A stretch of DNA of 64,000 bases from a virus (Duplodnaviria; Heunggongvirae; Uroviricota; Caudoviricetes), in IMG/VR virus record IMGVR_UViG_2724679236_000008; one strand, written 5' to 3'. Of the stretch, positions 946-43,276 are shown one piece after another. Below the pieces are notes generated by a model. It ran no database searches and was not told the DNA's origin. It saw only the letters and a program-made list of their open reading frames with translations. The position numbers and the translations under genes were made by a program. Every line of letters begins with the position of its first letter. Position 1 is the stretch's first letter.

Positions 946-1989
946 TTATCTAACACTCGACGAGTGACTTGTGATAGCGCCGACTCCAAGCGCGTAATCA
1001 AAGAACAATCGTTGATGCATCGCCAGCCTACCGTGCGTCTTCTCCCAATTATCGCGGTCACGCTCAATATCACGCTGGCATGACTGGCACAGAGGAATTG
1101 CGTAAATGTCATGCGCGCATAATCGACTATGACGAACGATATAAGGCGTAATGTGAGCGCCAGCTCCCGCCGCTCCACACCCACAGCATGGACGGGAAGC
1201 AACAAAGTCCATGTACTCAGGTAATTTTAGCGATTGCAGTTTTGGTATTTTGAAATGCGCCATGCCAGGGTCGGAGTCAACATCCACAGGGCATACTTTT
1301 GCACGCATCGGCGCGGCGCGTTCTTCCATCATCTGGACATATGCTGTAGCGCGATCGTCATACGGGCGAATATCCGCCTCTTTCAGAGGTCCGCTATCCT
1401 GCGTTGCGGCTTTCATCTTATTTATTGATATACGGTAAACTTCTTCCGGCATCAGGTGCATCATGTTGCGCATGAAAGCCCACCAGCACAGTTCCTGAAT
1501 ACTTAAATCATGGCCATCTGAAAGCCCCATTTCCTGACGGGCGACATCCAGTATCCAGTTAACGCGATTATTATGCAGCGTTTCTTTCAGCTCATTAAAA
1601 CCACGCATCCGGTAATGGTTATCGTGATGCCAGCACAACAACACCGCGCTCTTGTCTCGTTCAGCGTGGACAATATGGTTGTCACACCAACTACGATCTG
1701 CGGCCTGGCATTGCCCCTCTTTCCTGCGCAACCACGCCACCAGCGCGTCAATTCCACCAATACGGCGAAACAGTTCATCGCTGTTAAAAAACGGCTGCAA
1801 CGCCTCATTTGTTGCCATAGTTTGCTCGGAAACAACGAGGCCGTCGTCCATGTGCTCGATTAACTCACGCGGCACCGGCTCCATAATAAATTTACGGCCA
1901 GCCTCCACCAGCTTTCTGACTTCCTGATCCACTTTGAATGTGGCGACGCCAAGCTCTTTTTGTACAAAGGGAGTAATTACGGCTTTCAC
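946..1989 (-). CDS. conserved phage protein with C-terminal Cys-rich putative zinc-binding region (P1 PdcB position)
   Basis: 347-aa ORF; Cys cluster PCCGCG...LCAHD...CQSCQ near C-terminus; no catalytic motif recognised. Confidence 0.6.
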
Positions 1990-2016
1990 ATCACACCTTT
2001 CATCACTGATTGGGCT

Positions 2017-2217
2017 TTATCTGCTGCCCGGCATTCTCTGTTTAAGCACAACCATTTCCTGACGGCATAACACAGCATTAGCGGTCCTGACACCAACTTG
2101 CTTACCAACCAGGTATTGCTTTACCTCGCGGCGACTCACGCCATCAAGAAGCATCTTTAACGCTTCACGGGACAATTTGTTGTATTTGCGTGCCATTAAT
2201 CTACTCCGCAGAACCAT
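2017..2217 (-). CDS. small basic protein, 66 aa (P1 PdcA position); uncertain
   Basis: ORF overlapping the doc 3' end by 17 nt; K/R-rich; start not verified. Confidence 0.3.
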
Positions 2218-2581
2218 ACAATCTACGTAACGTGTCGGCGACAGAAGATACAGATATCTCGCCAGTCGCAGCGCCTACAGTAAGGTCTGCCAGTTCAGGT
2301 GAATCAAATACCTGCACCCCGTTACGGCGTAGAAATAACAGCGCACTGTTTAGCGCGGTACGCTTATTGGCATCATTGAATATATGCCCTCTCGCTGTAG
2401 CCACCAGGTAGGTGGCGGAGACTTCGAAAAGGTCGGTGATCTCTTCGTAGGCAACTCTGGCCTGAACTCTCCCGATAATGGCCTCTGCCCTACCCGGATC
2501 TGACATTCCCGGCAGGCCGCCGTAGCGGTTTATATTCGCATCATGAAGCGCAATAAGTTCTTCCGGTGATATATGCCTCAT
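2201..2581 (-). CDS. doc: Doc toxin (Fic/Doc family), 126 aa
   Basis: [22 protein letters not shown]...[12 protein letters not shown] with Fic-type motif; matches recalled P1 Doc; ATGA overlap with phd. Confidence 0.95.
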
Positions 2582-2802
2582 TATCGGTTAACCAGTTCCT
2601 TGTTGGTGGAGTCCAGGGTGTCAAACAGGGATGCAAATTCAGCATCCAGCGCCGCTTTTTTGTAGGCTTCGAAAGTAGCCTTGCTGACAATTACTGCTGG
2701 CTCACGGCCTCTGCGGGTGATTTCAACCTCTTCCCCGGCTTCAACATTGTTGAGCACTTCAGAAAGGTTGCCGCGCGCGGTACGGAAGTTAATGGATTGC
2801 AT
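2581..2802 (-). CDS. phd: Phd antitoxin, 73 aa
   Basis: [49 protein letters not shown] matches recalled P1 Phd; track ORF begins two codons upstream. Confidence 0.95.
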
Positions 2803-2823
2803 AAACACCTCGTGTACTCGTTA

Positions 2824-2833
2824 TGTGTACACA
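2824..2833. promoter_or_regulatory. perfect palindrome TGTGTACACA upstream of phd (candidate Phd/Doc autoregulatory operator)
   Basis: 10-bp palindrome about 22 bp upstream of the phd start in the divergent phd/hsdM intergenic region. Confidence 0.35.
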
Positions 2834-2978
2834 ATTATAAACTTCACAGGCATAAAGCACCAGCACTTTGCGGCTTAACAAACCTCTAGGCAGGTCATTC
2901 GTAGCCTAATGTCCGAACTGCTAAAGCATCCAAGTTGCTGTAGAATCACATCCAATTACATAAGCCTGAAATAAGTGG

Positions 2979-4540
2979 ATGAAAATGACAAGTATTCAAC
3001 AACGTGCAGAGCTTCATCGTCAAATCTGGCAAATTGCTAACGATGTCAGGGGTTCGGTCGATGGATGGGATTTTAAGCAATACGTTCTGGGCGCACTTTT
3101 CTACCGTTTTATCAGCGAAAATTTTTCCAGCTATATTGAAGCCGGTGATGACAGTATCTGTTATGCGAAACTGGATGACAGCGTAATTACTGATGACATT
3201 AAAGACGATGCCATCAAAACTAAAGGCTACTTCATCTACCCAAGTCAGCTTTTCTGCAACGTAGCTGCGAAAGCAAATACCAATGACAGACTGAATGCAG
3301 ATTTAAACAGTATCTTCGTTGCTATCGAAAGTTCTGCTTACGGTTACCCTTCAGAAGCTGACATCAAAGGTTTGTTTGCTGATTTCGATACCACCAGTAA
3401 CCGCCTGGGTAACACCGTTAAGGATAAAAATGCCCGCCTGGCTGCGGTTCTGAAAGGGGTTGAAGGGTTAAAACTTGGTGACTTCAACGAACATCAGATT
3501 GACCTGTTCGGCGATGCCTATGAGTTCCTGATTTCTAACTATGCGGCGAATGCTGGTAAGTCAGGCGGCGAGTTTTTTACACCGCAGCATGTCTCTAAGC
3601 TGATTGCACAACTGGCTATGCACGGGCAGACCCACGTTAACAAAATCTACGACCCAGCCGCAGGTTCCGGTTCGCTGTTGTTACAGGCGAAAAAGCAGTT
3701 TGATGACCATATCATCGAAGAAGGCTTTTTTGGTCAGGAGATCAACCATACGACCTATAACCTGGCGCGTATGAACATGTTTTTGCACAACATCAACTAC
3801 GACAAGTTTGATATCAAGCTGGGCAATACGCTGACTGAGCCGCACTTCAGAGATGAAAAACCGTTTGATGCCATCGTTTCTAACCCGCCATATTCGGTGA
3901 AATGGATTGGCAGTGATGACCCGACGCTGATTAACGATGAACGTTTTGCCCCTGCTGGCGTTCTGGCCCCAAATCAAAAGCTGACTTCGCCTTTGTACTA
4001 CATGCGCTGAACTATCTTTCTGCCAAAGGTCGTGCTGCGATTGTCTGCTTCCCGGGTATTTTTTACCGTGGCGGCGCAGAGCAGAAAATCCGTCAGTATC
4101 TGGTCGACAATAACTATGTCGAAACCGTGATTTCACTGGCACCGAATCTGTTCTTTGGCACCACTATTGCCGTAAACATTCTGGTGCTGTCTAAACATAA
4201 AACGGATACCAAAGTTCAGTTTATTGATGCCAGCGAGCTGTTTAAAAAAGAAACTAACAACAATACCCTGACCGATGCCCATATCGAACAGATTATGCAG
4301 GTATTTGCCAGCAAGGAAGATGTTGCTCATCTGGCGAAATCTGTTGCGTTTGAGACTGTTGTCGCGAATGACTATAACCTGTCGGTGAGCAGCTATGTGG
4401 AAGCGAAAGATACTCGCGAAATTATCGATATCGCTGAGTTGAATGCAGAGCTGAAAAGCACCGTCGGCAAAATCGACCAGTTGCGCAAAGATATTGATGC
4501 GATTGTGGCTGAAATTGAAGGCTGCGAGGTGCAGAAATGA
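2979..4540 (+). pseudogene. hsdM: type I R-M methyltransferase subunit HsdM, interrupted by a 1-nt frameshift at the CCCCAAA tract (3967-3973)
   Basis: Frame 1 (2979-4010) has N6-adenine MTase motifs including NPPYSVKW, then stops. Frame at -1 continues [63 protein letters not shown] to 4540. Combined length about 520 aa. Confidence 0.85.
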
Positions 4541-5730
4541 GCGAGATGAGTTATCTGGAAAAATTGCTGGATGGGGTTGAGGTTGAGTGGTTGCCATTGG
4601 GGGAAGTCTCAGCCTTAAGAAGAGGCAGAGTTATGTCAAAGGGATATTTAACTGAAAATTTTGGCCCATATCCTGTCTATAGCTCTCAAACTGCAAATAA
4701 TGGGAAAATAGGTTCTATCAATACCTTCGATTTTGATGGCGAATATATAAGCTGGACAACAGATGGCGCAAATGCAGGCACTGTGTTCTATCGAACAGGT
4801 AAATTTTCAATAACTAATGTTTGCGGCCTGATTACATTAAAAAGTAAATACCCATTAATCTACAAATTTCTGTTTTACTGGCTAACAATAGAAGCCAAAA
4901 AACATGTTTACTCAGGAATGGGAAACCCCAAGTTAATGAGTCATCAGGTTGAAAATATACCTGTACCAATCCCCTGCCCGGATAATCCGGAAAAATCCCT
5001 TGCCATCCAGTCTGAAATCGTCCGGATTCTGGATACATTTACTGCAATTACCGCTGAGCTTAACATGCGTAAAAAACAGTACAACTACTATCGCGACCGG
5101 TTATTTAGTTTTGGTGCCCACGATGTTAAACGTCTGAAATTAGGAGAGCTATGTGTAATTGGAGACGGTTTGCATGGTACTCCAGAATATGACGCCAACG
5201 GTGATTATTTCTTTATCAATGGAAACAATTTAGGCTATCAAAAAATATCATTTAACGATAACACAAAAAAGGTTAATGATTCTATGTTTAAAAAACACGG
5301 AATTCATTTTGACCCAATAAATACTGTTTTCCTGTCAATTAATGGCACAATTGGAAATGTTTCCTTTTACAATAATGAGAAGATCGTACTCGGTAAGTCT
5401 GTGGCCTATTTTAAAATTAAATCACCTGAACTCCACACTAGATATCTTTTCTATTTCCTGCAAACCAATTACGCAAAACAGTATTTTGAAAATCAAAAAA
5501 CAGGTTCAACTATTAAAAACTTAGGTTTAAAATCGTTGAGAGCATTTGAAATACCTATCCCATCATACGATGAACAACTTTATATCGTCGCCACGATGGA
5601 TAAATTTTACAACCTGACAAACTCCATCACCGAAGGCCTTCCGCGTGAAATCGAGTTGCGCCAGAAACAATACGAATACTACCGTGATTTACTTTTCAGT
5701 TTCCCGAAACCTGAAACTGTCAGTAATTAA
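4537..5730 (+). CDS. hsdS: type I R-M specificity subunit HsdS, 397 aa, type IC-like
   Basis: Two AT-rich variable target-recognition regions separated by conserved TAEL...[15 protein letters not shown] and C-terminal [26 protein letters not shown] overlap with hsdM end. Confidence 0.9.
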
Positions 5731-9216: not shown

Positions 9217-9233
9217 AGATTTATTAGAGCAAT
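9217..9233. promoter_or_regulatory. C1-operator-like 17-mer (16/17)
   Basis: agatttattagagcaat overlapping the stop codon of the HAD gene, upstream of the 28-aa peptide ORF. Confidence 0.5.
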
Positions 9234-23294: not shown

Positions 23295-23555
23295 TTATTA
23301 ACCTCATTACTGGTTGGGAAATAAGGTTGCGGTGCCGGGTGCCTCCCGGTGTCCTTTGGCTGGTTATCCACCGTGGACGGGGAAAAGGAGAAATTAATGG
23401 ACTGATATAACCATTTCCCCGCGTGCGCTTAGCCGCATTCACCGCAATGGTAAGAGCACTTGGCTGGCTGGGCGGCGATGACGCCTGTACGCATTTGGTG
23501 ATCCGGTTCTGCTTCCGGCATTCGCTTAATTAGCCAAATACTCTTAACGTTGCGC

Positions 23556-23642
23556 TGGTGGAGAGTAATGGAATCGAACCATCATCGCTTGCGCAATGGG
23601 ACGGTTTTCAAGACCGTTTGAGCACCATGCTCCCTACTCTCC
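23556..23642 (-). tRNA. class II tRNA (long variable arm), anticodon UGA (Ser by anticodon)
   Basis: Hand fold: acceptor GGAGAGT/ACTCTCC, anticodon arm ACGGT-CTTGAAA-ACCGT, 17-nt variable arm, T-arm GATGG-TTCGATT-CCATT, CCA encoded; identity not confirmed. Confidence 0.65.
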
Positions 23643-23873
23643 GGCCGTTGTGGTGACCGGTACTGAATCTCCGGCATACGGTGCAGCCAATTAGGACTAC
23701 GGACGATCACCGCTCGCGAAAGGGAAGATTTGCGGCCGCATTTCCCTAACATCCAAGAAAGCTATCGCATCAGTCTGCGAATCCACCACAACGGAAAGAG
23801 CATTTATGGCTCGCATCGCGGGAAAAAGCCCACGGTAGAGAGTCGAACTCTACAAATACTCTTACCTGTTGTG

Positions 23874-23930
23874 CTGGTGCCGGTTAACGGATTCGAACCG
23901 CTGAGCTACACCATCACTTGCCGGGTACGT
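23874..23930 (-). other. tRNA-like 3' fragment (T-arm plus acceptor plus CCA) without a foldable 5' half
   Basis: ...GTAGCTCAGCGGTTCGAATCCGTTAACCGGCACCA; no complementary 5' acceptor strand or anticodon arm found; second T-arm-like hairpin nearby at 23835-23860. Confidence 0.3.
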
Positions 23931-24570
23931 CTCCGGCGAGGGCTTCCACCTCCGTATGCTTTTCGGCGCACCGCGCCCTGGCTGCAATTCGGTAACAGGG
24001 GATGCATAACCCTGGCTTCCAGCGTGATTAGCGCTTTCAGCATGACGGGATATACCCGTGATTGAAACTTTAATGGACCAATGTGAAACACATATGCTGT
24101 TACGCCGAATGAAAAAGGACGTAACAGGAAAGGGCACTGACCAAAAGATGGCCCCCTTCTCGCTCATCTGGTTAATCGAACCAGCGCCCTTGCCTGTTAT
24201 GCCTCCCCGTTCCCTAATACACAGACGGGGACACTCTGCGGTCGATTTTTTGACGGGGGACGACTCATACCCCGTGGCGTCAGGCTTCTTAGGCCGCTAC
24301 CATCATCAGATCATCGTTTGCATTTACTTTAATGGTCAGTTTCTAAACCGCCGCAAAGTCGCTAACCATGACGAAAACCCTGAAAAAACGCCCACCCGAA
24401 GATGGGCAAACTGGAAGCTCGTAACGCACTTCGGTGTTGCCACTTAGGCGCATGGTCAACCTGGCAACTCGGTGGTTTGTCTGGGAGGACTAGACCCAGC
24501 CATGCTTACCGCCGCGCCTGTCGCGGCTAACAGCTAAATCGCTCTATAAATCACGATTCATTGAGGCAAT

Positions 24571-24598
24571 ATTACACTAATAAATTTATTAGAGCAAT
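24571..24598. promoter_or_regulatory. two overlapping C1-operator 17-mers in opposite orientation (15/17 and 17/17)
   Basis: attacactaataaattt (24571-24587) and aaatttattagagcaat (24582-24598), overlapping the methyltransferase stop codon; likely promoter for leftward tRNA-tci-ban transcription. Confidence 0.6.
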
Positions 24599-26853
24599 AC
24601 AGCTATAACGTCATGAGCAACACCACGAGTGTCCCCCTTACAAGACACAGAACGTCTGGCAAAAAGAGGTTCCACTCTGAAGCCACTGTCCTGATAAAGC
24701 TCTCTGATGTTTGGCGCGCCACTGTTAGTAATGAGAACCTTTGCACCTCGGCGATGGGCATCCGTCAACAGAGACACCAGGCGTTTTTGCTCTTCAAACT
24801 TAAAGTCATGACCGGAATAGTTCGTGAACCCCTCTGTATTGGGGAGCGGTTCATACGGCGGATCGCAAAAGATGACATCTCCTTCTCCGGCACCTTCAAT
24901 CACCGCTGCAAAATCACCGCATACAAACTCAGACCGCCCTTCCGCACCGATGAAGGCTTCCATCTCCTGTAATGGGAAATACGGAGTTTTATACTTCCCA
25001 TAACCAACATTAAACTCACCGGCCTGGTTGTAACGCGTCAATCCGTTAAAACAATGTCGGTTCAGGAACAAAAACGCTGCTGCACGATGTAAATCATCAT
25101 AGGCTTGTTTGTTAAACGCATTCCGTACTGCCAGGTATCCATCCTGTGTGTTGTAGTCCTGGAAAAACCGATGCGCCAGAGTGATAAGTGAATGTCCCTC
25201 ACGTTGCAGAGTCCTGTAAAAGTTAATCAGGTCGGCATTCACATCATTTAGCAGATTTTCTTGATATCCGGCATTTATGAAGACAGCTCCGCCACCAACG
25301 AAAGGTTCAATCAGGCGCTTTCCGTCAGGTAAATGCCTAAAGATTTGTTCCAGAACACCAAATTTTCCACCGACCCATTTAAATATGGGACGGTCAAATT
25401 CTGCCGTTAGCTTAACTTTCCGTTCTGTTGCTTCATGATTTTCTGCCTGCTGATATGCAGCCTTAATAATCCGCTCACCAATCCATCGCATTACTGGTAT
25501 CGCCATACTATTGCCGATCGCTTTGTAACGCGGTCCGTCAGCTGAAAGCATCGCGGCCTCTTCTTCGCTTAAATCTGGATAGTGATTGCGCAGATATGCC
25601 AGTTCATCTGAATTAACTTTTTTACGCTTTTCCGTAGGGATCAACGTATACCCATCAGGAAAACCTTGGAGTCTTTCGCATTCGACAGGGGTAAGGCGGC
25701 GGACAGCTACTTCTGCGTTTCTTACTTCATAGCAAACGGCTGTTGGATTTTGAGCCATTAGAGATGGTGAAGTATTCTTAGTTGCCGCATGTTGTGTACC
25801 ACTCATACGCTCAGGAAAAGCCAATGCAACAAGATGCTCATGGCTTTCTTGCTCACGCGCCCGCAATGTACCATGTCCTTCTGACCAAAAACCTGCTCCT
25901 GTGCTGCTAAAAACGGCAAGATCAGTAGCATCTTTAAAGTCTCTTGCCTTTACTGTCGATGCAGTTTCATCGTCAATATATTCCCCAAAAGCAGCCATCC
26001 TGAAAGCGTTTACGGCTTTCGTTGATTTCATTCTGGGGTTCCCATCAGCGTGTAGGCATGGATTTATATTTTCACCACTGATTGCAGCGCCATTTGCAAT
26101 AATGGCGGAAGCGATTTCCTTCTTTTTTCGGCTCGGCGCAATATTCCGGCGCACGCCTTCGAACTCAAAAAGTACCGTTGCGGGATCGAGGTCTGTTCGA
26201 GCACTTGCGACAACAAACACGCGTCGGCGTCGTTGTGCCACTCCGAAGTATTGGGCATCAAGGATTCTCCAGGCCACCTTTCGCTGCGGTCCATAAATAC
26301 AACCACACTGCGGCCACTTTGGAGCATGGCAACCGGTTTTGACATCCCACCGCCAGAACGCGTTACTTTTTCGTGATTCAGGTCGCTCACCTGGTTCGAA
26401 TGGCGCATCTTCTCCAGCCAATCCGGCAAGGAAACATCCGAAGGCGTTATCTGCCGATGACAAGACTCCTGGGACATTTTCCCAGACGATAACGGCTGGT
26501 TTGAGAAATGACTCAGCCCGTTTGTCGTCAATTGCATTTGCAAGCTCCACATACTTTAAAGTTAGCGCGCCACGCTCATCATCAAGCCCACCACGTAATC
26601 CCGCGATACTGAATGCCTGGCAAGGTGTTCCCCCGACGAGCACATCGGGGGATTCAATTTCCCCAGCCCGGACTTTTTTGGCAAGTTTTGTCATATCGCC
26701 AAGGTTGGCGACATGGGGCCAGCGGTGCGCAAGAACGGCAGATGGAAAAGGCTCGATTTCAGCAAACCAAGCCGGACGCATACCCAACGGCTCCCAAGCA
26801 ATGCTCGCGGCTTCAATTCCACTGCAAACAGATCCATAGCACAGCTCTTTCAC
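24589..26853 (-). CDS. dmt: fused DNA methyltransferase: N-terminal C5-cytosine MTase plus C-terminal Dam-like N6-adenine MTase, 754 aa
   Basis: C5 motifs [12 protein letters not shown] and ENVPGV in N-terminal half; Dam-family FVGGGAVF and DPPY in C-terminal half. Confidence 0.85.
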
Positions 26854-27755
26854 TGCTTAGCCTCTCCACCAAGGGCATTTACCAGAGCATCAACCAGGCT
26901 CGAAATTTCACTGGTCAACAGGAAGAAATCCGCGTCCAGGCGCTGCGCAACATCTTCACTATCAATATCAGAGTTCTGCTCAAGCAATTCATCCGCAAAT
27001 TTTACGCTGGTAAGGCTGAAGTTATGGTCCAGTGTAAATTTAATGCGGTTCTGCCAGTCGAGTGCCAACTTAGTGACGAGCTTGCCAGCTTCCAAGTGTG
27101 TGGAAATTTCATCGCTTCCCAAATCCTGCTTTTTCACTCGGGCAATACCGCCATCCTCAAGCACTGCCTTAAGTTCTGCCGCATCCCCCATTTGAAATCC
27201 CTGTGGAGCACTACCATCACGTACCCAGTCGGTCAGAGTTAATTCAATGGGATTTTCAACACTCAGGGGAACAACAGGAAGAGAACCCAGAGACTTACGC
27301 ATAAGCGCGAGCATATCCTCTGCCTGCCGCGCGCTGGCATTAATATAGATACGTTTAGTTGAACCGTCGTAGATCGCCTGGATAACAGAAAACTTTGAAA
27401 AAGCCCGTGGCAGAAGAGAATGCAGAACTTCGTCTTTCAGGGAGTCCTTCTCTGTTTTCTTCAGTTTACGCGCTTGTTCTTGCTCAAGTTTTTCAATTTT
27501 TTCTTGAATAGCTCGCTGGATAACCGGCGGGGGAAGAATTTTTGTTTCGCGCTTTGCTTCAACAAGGATAAAACCATTTCCATGCATAGCGATAACTTCG
27601 GAATTATCACCAAATGGCGATACAAAACCGAACTTGGCCATATCCTGACTACCGCATGGCGTGAAAAGGATCATTTTCTTTTTATCTTCTAAGTCGGTCA
27701 GATCCGCCTCACGAGAAAGTTTATAAATAGTAATGTTTTTCCAGTGCTTAAACAT
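26850..27755 (-). CDS. RdgC-like recombination-associated protein (P1 HrdC-like), about 301 aa
   Basis: From internal Met: [16 protein letters not shown]...[17 protein letters not shown]...[16 protein letters not shown] resembles E. coli RdgC; track ORF extends 38 codons upstream. Confidence 0.75.
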
Positions 27756-28104
27756 GTTGTAACCCTTGAATATCAACCACAGAAAGCTCGTCTTTGTAGA
27801 AAAAGGCCAGGTTGTGGCACCCCCTCGTTTGAGCGTATGAGCTGGGACCAATTTCGTTCTTCCAGACAAATGGCTTCAAATCCGTACGGCGAAGCATAAA
27901 AACGCGATTTGTTCCGCTCTGATTCCCAATGAGGCAAAAGCCTTCTTTCACCTTGATAGCCTGCAAGTTGTCGAGTTCACCGCTGGTTACACGGCTATCG
28001 AACTCCTTGCGGCTTATTAGCTCCATCTGCATCTGACGACTCCAAACAAATGCCCATTGAAGGGCGATGGCTGAATGGTACCGAAAACACTGCATAAAAA
28101 ACAA
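27748..28104 (-). CDS. hypothetical protein, up to 118 aa
   Basis: ORF immediately upstream of the RdgC-like gene; start uncertain. Confidence 0.4.
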
Positions 28105-28120
28105 TATTTATTAGAGCAAT
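28104..28120. promoter_or_regulatory. C1-operator-like 17-mer (16/17) in divergent intergenic region
   Basis: atatttattagagcaat; a weaker half-site at 28176-28190. Confidence 0.5.
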
Positions 28121-28201
28121 TTTGTAATAAGAAAACACCATTAAGACCACAAATAACATAAGGTAAAATAACGAAAATTAGAGCAAATAATTGGTGATGA
28201 C

Positions 28202-28486
28202 GTGGCAAGTATTGCAACAAAAGACAGCATTTGTTCGGGGCACGGAGGATTCCCATCCAGGCCTCCTGTAGAAAGTGAACCACTACTTAAAGTCAACGGA
28301 GTCGAAGTGTTAGTTGATGGTAAGCAATATGCACAGCATACCGATGGAAACAGTACGCACGGTGGGCAAGCTATATCAACCAGGGCATGGTTTACCGTCA
28401 ATGGTAAAGGGGTCGTATGCGTTGGTGACCCTGTTTCATGCGGCTCTACCGTAGCGTCAGGAGACGGCCTGGTTCAGGTAAGTTAG
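28202..28486 (+). CDS. PAAR-like spike-tip protein, 94 aa
   Basis: Repeated ...VNG(K)...GD...C...G...V pattern (LKVNGVEVLVDG, FTVNGKGVVCVGDPVSCGS) characteristic of PAAR-like domains. Confidence 0.5.
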   Translation: MASIATKDSICSGHGGFPSRPPVESEPLLKVNGVEVLVDGKQYAQHTDGNSTHGGQAISTRAWFTVNGKGVVCVGDPVSCGSTVASGDGLVQVS

Positions 28487-28494
28487 GAGATATC

Positions 28495-29283
28495 ATGCTG
28501 GAAAAAGACTACCAGTTATCCGCATATAAAAAATTGGCCGCAGCCGGTGGGATGAAAACACCTGGTGCCATAACATCGGCACGAAACAGTGCTAACACGG
28601 CAAAACAGCTTGCAGAAGAATTGATCGGATTAATTTTGGATACAATTGTCTATCCCGACACTATTACCAGCTATGTTTCAACGATCAGAACAACCACAAC
28701 CGGCTTAACGAACATTGGAGAACTGGCAACTAAGCACGCGGACCTGTTGGCTGGTTATGCAGATCTGTCAATGCTGCTTCAACTCGATATTGGTTGGGAT
28801 GTTTACTGCCGTGCTAATGAGCGAGAAGTATCAGAACTGCCGATCTCTATTGCCATTGGTGATGTGACTATTACTAAATCGCTTGAGGATGCTGTAAACG
28901 CGCTTAATACATCAAGTTTAGTCGCTGCTATGGGGGAGATTAACCAGACCCTTAACACTGGCTCAGGAAGCTCGTCAGGCTCTGGTTCAGGCGGCGGCAC
29001 TGCCACTCCCCCACCAGCACTAACAGAAGAGCAAATTGAATCTCTGAAAGTAGCAACTGAACAGTTTGGGGTTGTTTTCAACCAGACAACAGCGCCCACA
29101 ACTGCGTTACAACAGCAGTATGAACGAGCGAATGAAAGCGCCAACGTAGCCATAACTGCTTATAACCATGCTATCGGTACCGCGCTTGCGGAAGCATCAG
29201 CAAATAAGGCCAGCACAGCCAGCGCAGTCGCCGCTTTGGTTCCTGATTCTGTTCTTGATGAATTAAACAAAGCGGCACAGTAA
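28495..29283 (+). CDS. hypothetical protein with central Gly/Ser linker, 262 aa
   Basis: ATG at 28495 after AGGAGA; GSGSSSGSGSGGGTATPPPA linker between two helical regions. Confidence 0.55.
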   Translation: MLEKDYQLSAYKKLAAAGGMKTPGAITSARNSANTAKQLAEELIGLILDTIVYPDTITSYVSTIRTTTTGLTNIGELATKHADLLAGYADLSMLLQLDIGWDVYCRANEREVSELPISIAIGDVTITKSLEDAVNALNTSSLVAAMGEINQTLNTGSGSSSGSGSGGGTATPPPALTEEQIESLKVATEQFGVVFNQTTAPTTALQQQYERANESANVAITAYNHAIGTALAEASANKASTASAVAALVPDSVLDELNKAAQ

Positions 29284-30354: not shown

Positions 30355-30440
30355 CTTATCCACATTATCCACTGGGTAGATCCAATAATTAGGTCCATAC
30401 AGATCCCAATTAGATCCATATAGATCCCTGATCGTTGCAG
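30355..30440. promoter_or_regulatory. plasmid origin oriR elements: tandem DnaA boxes and GATC-containing heptamer repeats
   Basis: TTATCCACA (30357-30365) and TTATCCACT (30366-30374); repeated (t/c)agatcc units and tgatcg at 30377-30435. Confidence 0.7.
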
Positions 30441-43259: not shown

Positions 43260-43276
43260 AAATTTATTAGAGCAAA
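43260..43276. promoter_or_regulatory. C1-operator 17-mer (16/17) upstream of kilA-repL (Op53-like)
   Basis: aaatttattagagcaaa. Confidence 0.6.

Follow-up and report, generated by a model that had tools for sequence, protein, structure and literature searches.

Introduction

Bacteriophage P1 encodes the protein Dmt (AAQ14041.1; earlier name P1 Dam), which the P1 annotation calls a bifunctional DNA methyltransferase. Its documented role is the methylation of GATC in pac, which is required for packaging in Dam- hosts; clustered GATC methylation in P1 pac is required for pac cleavage (PMC12707154, PMC7253447, PMC11437467). For P1 (AF234172) and P7 (AF503408), descriptions or annotations already exist of the gene and its two-domain make-up, of its part in methylating pac, and of the operator pair Op72ab that lies over its stop codon. 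Here we report on the dmt gene found in a 64,000-nucleotide stretch of DNA from a virus of the Caudoviricetes (IMG/VR record IMGVR_UViG_2724679236_000008), the whole of which we call the window. Like its P1 counterpart the protein is a fusion, unlike E. coli Dam and M.HhaI, the two stand-alone, single-domain enzymes with which we compare its halves.

An earlier, sequence-only reading of this DNA had pointed to an orphan gene for a combined C5-cytosine and Dam-like N6-adenine methyltransferase with overlapping C1 operators at its 3' end. This observation is confirmed by our analysis, while the interpretation attached to it, self-protection of the DNA and control of a downstream transcription unit, is supported in part. 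We are very confident that the gene is the dmt of a P1-family (Punavirus, IncY) phage-plasmid of Escherichia albertii, that it encodes a fusion of two methyltransferases, and that the operator pair over its stop codon, Obanab, belongs to ban. Among the features tested, the copy in the window appears to depart from the known P1 system only in allelic detail.

Results and Discussion

The dmt coding sequence occupies positions 24589-26853 on the minus strand and encodes 754 amino acids followed by a TAA stop codon at 24589-24591. Its start codon is a GTG at 26851-26853, which overlaps the TGA stop codon of the upstream gene hrdC in a GTGA arrangement. The encoded protein is 94% identical to P1 Dmt (AAQ14041; 709/754 amino acids, 0 gaps), the alignment being colinear over the full length, which places it in the ortholog group of full-length P1 Dmt. 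Both proteins have the same length and the same order of the two modules; the 45 amino acids at which they differ are concentrated in the linker. Additionally, PHROG 116 matches amino acids 1-753 with an E value of 8.5e-269. At the level of DNA, the dmt region shares about 95% identity with bacteriophage P1, RCS47 and further Punavirus records, and in the comparison with P1 this nucleotide identity of about 95% extends across the whole neighbourhood, with a swapped tRNA module as the exception. The dmt region is 100% identical (2801 bases queried) to pEA4_97, a 97-kb, non-mobilizable IncY plasmid of Escherichia albertii strain BIA_4. The window shares with the P1 and P7 annotations the gene order uhr-hrdC-dmt-operator-ban operon, so that dmt stands at its conserved position. 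A single chain here contains two DNA methyltransferases that fold independently and depend on S-adenosylmethionine, with a poorly conserved linker connecting them, and the description of a single 754-residue protein with both a C5 and a Dam module is borne out by one open reading frame (ORF), by matches to PF00145 and PF02086, by the motifs and by the alignments. The name that PGAP gives to the protein is "Dam family site-specific DNA-(adenine-N6)-methyltransferase".

The C5-cytosine methyltransferase module extends from amino acid 1 to about 462 (25468-26853, minus strand). The Pfam family PF00145 (C-5 cytosine methylase) is matched in two stretches, the best at amino acids 8-135, with an E value of 5.1e-38 and 131.7 bits against a cutoff of 22, and the NCBIfam model TIGR00675 (dcm) is matched with 122.7 bits against a cutoff of 100.65. 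In a motif scan we detected the full catalytic set, namely motif I as VCSGIE (9-14), motif IV as PCQ (77-79), motif VI as ENV (125-127), motif VIII as QRRRR (207-211), motif IX as RLQGFP (394-399) and motif X as GNS (447-449). The alignment to M.HhaI (PDB 1MHT family) is colinear for motifs IV, VI, VIII, IX and X and places the catalytic Cys78, encoded at 26620-26622 on the minus strand, on Cys81 of HhaI. Compared to M.HhaI, longer insertions are found in the target-recognition region, a stretch of about 170 amino acids that separates motif VIII from motif IX, and also between motifs VI and VIII. Almost no variation is seen in the catalytic core among P1, P7, RCS47 and the element in the window.

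The second half of the protein is a Dam-type (D12 class) N6-adenine methyltransferase module, which occupies amino acids 488-754 (24592-25392, minus strand), with the complete Dam-type module delimited at 488-751. Here the Pfam family PF02086 (D12 N6-adenine methylase) is matched at amino acids 493-726 with an E value of 1.1e-56 and 192.8 bits against a cutoff of 22; the NCBIfam model TIGR00571 (dam) gives 250 bits against a cutoff of 114.85. The equivalog model for host-type Dam, NF008152, reaches 241.3 bits and stays below its cutoff of 441. By these scores the window protein is best classed as a member of the Dam family and not as a chromosomal Dam equivalog. We found the motifs KWVGGK (492-497), FVGGG (518-522), NDVN (536-539) and DPPY (664-667; window 24853-24864). 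This half aligns to residues 4-266 of E. coli Dam (PDB 2G1P) with 40% identity and an E value of 2e-57, and K9, N120, L122, R124, Y138 and the DPPY motif of E. coli Dam are all retained. In the Dam-DNA structure, the five single residues have roles in contacting GATC, while DPPY is the catalytic motif; FVGGG corresponds to the AdoMet motif FxGxG. The module would thus be expected to methylate adenine in GATC, an activity that has been shown for P1 and that we transfer to the window protein on the basis of the 94% identity and the conserved contact residues. Both domain matches lie above the curated cutoffs, and none of the catalytic residues, the loss of which would have spoken against a functional fusion, is missing in either half, as judged from the motif scan and from the alignments to E. 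coli Dam and M.HhaI.

Between the two modules lies a fast-evolving linker of approximately amino acids 463-487 (25393-25467, minus strand), which no family match covers. We compared the ratio of nonsynonymous to synonymous substitution rates (dN/dS) with P1 at the codon level. The C5 core (amino acids 1-230) gave a value of 0.10, the recognition region (231-380) 0.18, the stretch of C5 motifs IX and X (381-460) 0.09 and the Dam half (491-754) 0.14, compared to 0.76 in the linker (461-490). Purifying selection acts on the two modules, whereas the linker evolves freely, at a nearly neutral rate. Together with the motifs, these values indicate that the N-terminal module is most probably an intact, selectively maintained C5-cytosine methyltransferase.

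The absence of a restriction partner was also correctly seen in the sequence-only reading. The gene is flanked by hrdC, of the RdgC family, and uhr on its upstream side and by the ban leader and a tRNA on its downstream side, and we found no restriction endonuclease gene adjoining dmt in the ORFs, the annotations, NCBIfam or PHROG. The locus hence lacks the composition of a type II restriction-modification system and the methyltransferase is an orphan. A restriction partner hidden in the ORFs on the plus strand inside dmt was considered and rejected, the ORFs being without counterparts in the annotations of P1, P7, RCS47 and pEA4_97.

The alleles of the related elements differ in two respects that concern the C5 half. 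The P7 protein, Dam (AAQ07538.1, 672 amino acids; 1793-3811 in the P7 extract), is the same fusion with the operators over the stop codon, a near-identical catalytic core and a near-identical Dam half. The stretch that it has between C5 motifs VIII and IX bears no relation to the version shared by P1 and the window (about amino acids 243-380 of the window protein) and is 82 amino acids shorter. A swapped recognition domain would be expected to give this pattern, and the cytosine target of the P7 enzyme probably differs from the P1-type target. The second difference is found in RCS47, whose Dmt (CDN90818.1, 1095 amino acids) has an extein 94% identical to the window protein and lies in the same context with the same operators. 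It carries a 341-residue intein with Hint and LAGLIDADG parts immediately before the catalytic Cys (3826-4848, minus strand, in the RCS47 extract). This intein starts with a Cys (CFTAGH), contains a TNDHPF block and two LAGLIDADG motifs, and ends with VVHN, after which the catalytic Cys follows. The window allele is the empty site, with codon 78 at the insertion point. Intein DNA is present in 133 PLSDB plasmids, compared to 599 with matches to the dmt region (about a fifth), and we found no description of a dmt intein in the searchable literature. We put forward tentatively, at somewhat less than an even chance, that the C5 half is an active 5-methylcytosine (m5C) enzyme whose target varies among P1-family lineages, and that the intein-free allele of the window is a natural LAGLIDADG homing target.

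Residue 74, four residues before the catalytic Cys, is a Gly in the window, P7 and RCS47 (VGGTPCQ) and a Trp in the sequenced laboratory P1 (AF234172). Laboratory P1 may not be the best choice as a reference for C5 activity. In a second laboratory strain of P1 (AF234173), dmt is incomplete.

We next turn to the operators over the stop codon, whose history we take from the GenBank annotation and from general knowledge of P1. The asymmetric 17-bp consensus of the C1 operator, ATTGCTCTAATAAATTT, agrees with the P1 annotation. The first operator, Obana (Op72a), occupies 24582-24598 on the minus strand, reads ATTGCTCTAATAAATTT (17/17) and holds the dmt stop codon and, partly, the last three codons. 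The second, Obanb (Op72b), lies at 24571-24587 on the plus strand and reads ATTACACTAATAAATTT, matching the consensus at 15/17 positions. The two overlap by 6 bp and form a 28-bp near-palindrome (24571-24598) that is self-complementary at 24/28 positions. This 28-mer is base for base the annotated divalent C1 operator Obanab of P1 (formerly Op72ab), and it is identical in P1, P7, RCS47 and pEA4_97, while the adjacent codons vary. What had been taken for a perfect pair of 17-mers is indeed a real pair, with the stop codon inside the first site, but only one of its members is perfect. A C1 repressor gene is present in the 100%-matching plasmid pEA4_97, about 5 kb outside the window, and we count the sites as C1 operators.

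Buried in the operator pair is the promoter P1ban (24569-24597, minus strand), with the -35 hexamer TTGCTC at 24592-24597, within the last dmt codons, a 17-bp spacer and the -10 hexamer TAATAT at 24569-24574. The hexamers stand at the positions that are annotated in P1 as a sigma-70 promoter and the stretch is identical to P1. From this we read the two 17-mers over the dmt stop codon as the ban operator Obanab and not as part of dmt. When C1 sits on Obanab it would occlude P1ban, and the leftward transcription of the leader, the tRNA, tci and the ban helicase would be switched off in the lysogen. The proposal that the tRNA-tci-ban unit is gated by the operators in its leftward transcription corresponds to the established reading in P1, where Obanab/Op72ab overlaps P1ban and faces that unit.

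We scanned the whole window for 17-bp sites with at most three mismatches to the C1 consensus and repeated the scan on 100 shuffled sequences. The window contains 10 operator-like sites compared to 0.28 expected by chance (36-fold), a number that 0/100 shuffles reached. Seven more C1-operator-like sites with 1-3 mismatches are located at 928-944, 9217-9233, 11309-11325, 11358-11374, 14982-14998, 43260-43276 and 44919-44935; presumably they are other members of the C1 regulon.

A further operator shows how dmt itself would be controlled. Upstream of dmt on the minus strand follow hrdC (26850-27755), which is matched by NCBIfam models of the RdgC family with E values down to 4.5e-126, and uhr (27748-28032), named after the P1 annotation; the two give matches to PHROG 724 and 2213. 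In front of them lies the C1 operator Odmt (Op68; 28104-28120, minus strand; ATTGCTCTAATAAATAT, 16/17 match), which abuts the promoter Pdmt, annotated in P1, with the -35 hexamer TTGTTT at 28099-28104 and the -10 hexamer TACCAT at 28075-28080 on the minus strand. The Odmt sequence is identical in the window, in P1 (formerly Op68) and in P7, and the P7 annotation states of the equivalent site that it is 'predicted to control expression of upf64.0, hrdC and dam'. By sequence, dmt is predicted to close an operon, uhr-hrdC-dmt, that C1 represses. The GTG start that overlaps the hrdC stop codon suggests that dmt is translationally coupled to hrdC. Given that the operon would be read from Pdmt and controlled at Odmt/Op68, Dmt is expected to appear after derepression and not in the lysogen. 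This control of dmt by C1 through Odmt/Op68 had been overlooked in the sequence-only reading. The annotation of P7 additionally contains a prediction of an internal late promoter, LPdam2, with a weak -10 hexamer (TGAACT).

The documented substrate of the P1 enzyme is present in this element as well. Four TGATCA hexamers at 87-125, inside pacA, form half of pac, assigned from the sequence, the cluster of GATC sites and the identity of pacA. The window begins inside pacA and its edge cuts pac, the other half of which lies just before position 1; in pEA4_97, further GATC hexamers are found 9-60 bp before window base 1 (1379-1563 in the pEA4_97 extract). The pacA stretch is 99.7% identical to that plasmid in an alignment that starts from window base 4. 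By analogy with P1, cleavage by the pacase and the start of packaging would require prior methylation of the GATC sites in pac, and the Dam module would free the phage from the host Dam for the methylation of this cluster. The densest GATC cluster of the window is located elsewhere, at 30379-30433, with five sites in 55 bp, a position equivalent to that of the five Dam sites annotated in oriR of P1.

Several points weigh against the assignment of this gene as a functional two-methyltransferase fusion with the ban operator at its end, and we set them beside the evidence given above. For this element, we carry over from P1 the enzymatic activity, the specificity for GATC and the binding of C1. 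In the Dam half, 2/7 checked DNA-contact positions of E. coli Dam differ (Y119F and P134G); P1 Dmt is near-identical to the window protein in this region. P1ban and Pdmt were both left uncalled by a simple sigma-70 scan; they are weak matches, which we keep because of their annotation in P1 and the sequence identity. Furthermore, a strong terminator-like hairpin stands between P1ban and the first tRNA, so that control of the tRNA, tci and ban by P1ban needs read-through. Concerning the C5 half, the GenBank annotation of P1 (AF234172) says of the C5-cytosine activity only 'perhaps', and the searchable literature contains statements on GATC and pac only, with no report of m5C formation by Dmt or of its target sequence. 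Taken together with the Dam family label of PGAP and with the Trp that laboratory P1 has in place of Gly four residues before the catalytic Cys, the last two points could mean that the C5 half is a decaying remnant and that only the Dam half works, in which case the PGAP name would be functionally accurate. We consider this improbable. None of the six conserved C5 motifs is damaged, the catalytic Cys78 being in place, the core is invariant across P1, P7, RCS47 and the window element, and the C5 half has dN/dS values of 0.09-0.18, in the same low range as the Dam half; the low values in both modules argue against a decaying remnant. In addition, related alleles retain, exactly at the catalytic Cys, an in-frame intein whose splicing residues are canonical and the persistence of which is expected only if the spliced host protein matters.

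The whole protein could also serve chiefly as an orphan anti-restriction device, with both methylations shielding the DNA of the phage-plasmid, as the sequence-only reading had proposed. Phage orphan methyltransferases commonly work in this way (review PMC12707154), no cognate endonuclease adjoins dmt, and the wholly different, 82 amino acids shorter recognition region of P7 beside a near-identical core is what specificity swapping under restriction pressure would be expected to produce. The Dam half has, however, a different documented role in P1, the methylation of pac (PMC12707154, PMC7253447), and would add little protection because enterobacterial hosts are already GATC-methylated. The C1-repressed operon should leave the resident plasmid unmodified by Dmt during lysogeny, and dmt is dispensable, both dmt entries being non-essential in the CRISPR interference (CRISPRi) essentiality map, which was obtained in a Dam+ host (PMC10695390). 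Self-protection is hence not the established function of Dmt, and as the main purpose of the whole protein we regard it as rather unlikely. Given the documented role and the presence of pac substrates in this element, another role than self-protection is better supported for the Dam half. An anti-restriction role is plausible from the sequence for the C5 half only; the most likely use of this half would be the protection of progeny DNA from restriction in new hosts. A last alternative concerns the operator pair, which could act chiefly on dmt, as a C1 roadblock or as a 3'-end attenuator of Pdmt transcripts, and not as the operator of a separate promoter. Indeed, the operators overlap the dmt stop codon, and we found no terminator between dmt and the operators, so that Pdmt transcripts would run into them. 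We nevertheless judge this very improbable, as the -35 and -10 hexamers with their 17-bp spacing are positioned exactly inside the operators, face ban and are annotated in P1 as the sigma-70 promoter P1ban. In addition, dmt has an operator of its own, Odmt, at the start of the operon, and a block beyond the stop codon would leave the synthesis of Dmt unreduced. We thus retain the assignment of Obanab to ban.

The unit that the operators would gate extends over 20867-23642 on the minus strand, as derived from the tRNA scan, the ORFs and the annotations of P1 and pEA4_97. It comprises, all on the minus strand, a tRNA-Ser(UGA) at 23556-23642 that was found by the tRNA scan, tciA (22869-23294) and tciB (22705-22869), a tRNA(CAU) at 22519-22594 that is annotated as tRNA-Ile2 in P1, and ban, which encodes a DnaB-type helicase (20867-22231); tciA, tciB and ban were each assigned from ORF and annotation. 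The hairpin mentioned above (24389-24408, minus strand) has an 8-bp stem, a UUCG loop and a U-run and is nearly identical in P1. It closes a ban leader of about 155-175 nucleotides (leader stretch 24373-24562), overlaps the end of the 'dicF-like region' annotated in P1, and could yield a short leader RNA. The leader folds weakly better than shuffled sequences (z -1.72). We rejected an identity with DicF for the leader, in which the P1 'dicF-like region' corresponds to window 24373-24474: the Rfam DicF family was matched neither over 20000-29000 (E <= 0.1) nor over 24300-24620 (E <= 10).

The swapped tRNA module is a segment of about 435 bp (23458-23893) with the tRNA-Ser(UGA), which replaces about 700 bp of P1 that contain upl, plp, tRNA-Thr and tRNA-Asn. 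Most of this segment is present in P7 and in D6, while only 7 PLSDB plasmids cover at least 80% of it. Just upstream of tciA, at 23328-23446 on the minus strand, we also observed a sub-threshold Rfam match to the small RNA STnc100 (36.4 bits compared to a gathering score of 47, E 3.7e-05).

Conclusion

In summary, the importance of this finding goes little beyond a correct annotation. As a practical point of annotation, the Dam-only label of PGAP conceals the intact C5 module. A cytosine target of Dmt seems not to have been published so far for any member of the P1 family, an old gap that methylome data from one such element in a dam dcm host would fill. If the C5 half is indeed an active enzyme with a target that varies among lineages, and the intein-free allele a natural homing target, dmt would be a small arena of specificity swapping and of invasion by a selfish element inside a classic model phage, although this would be nothing new in kind.

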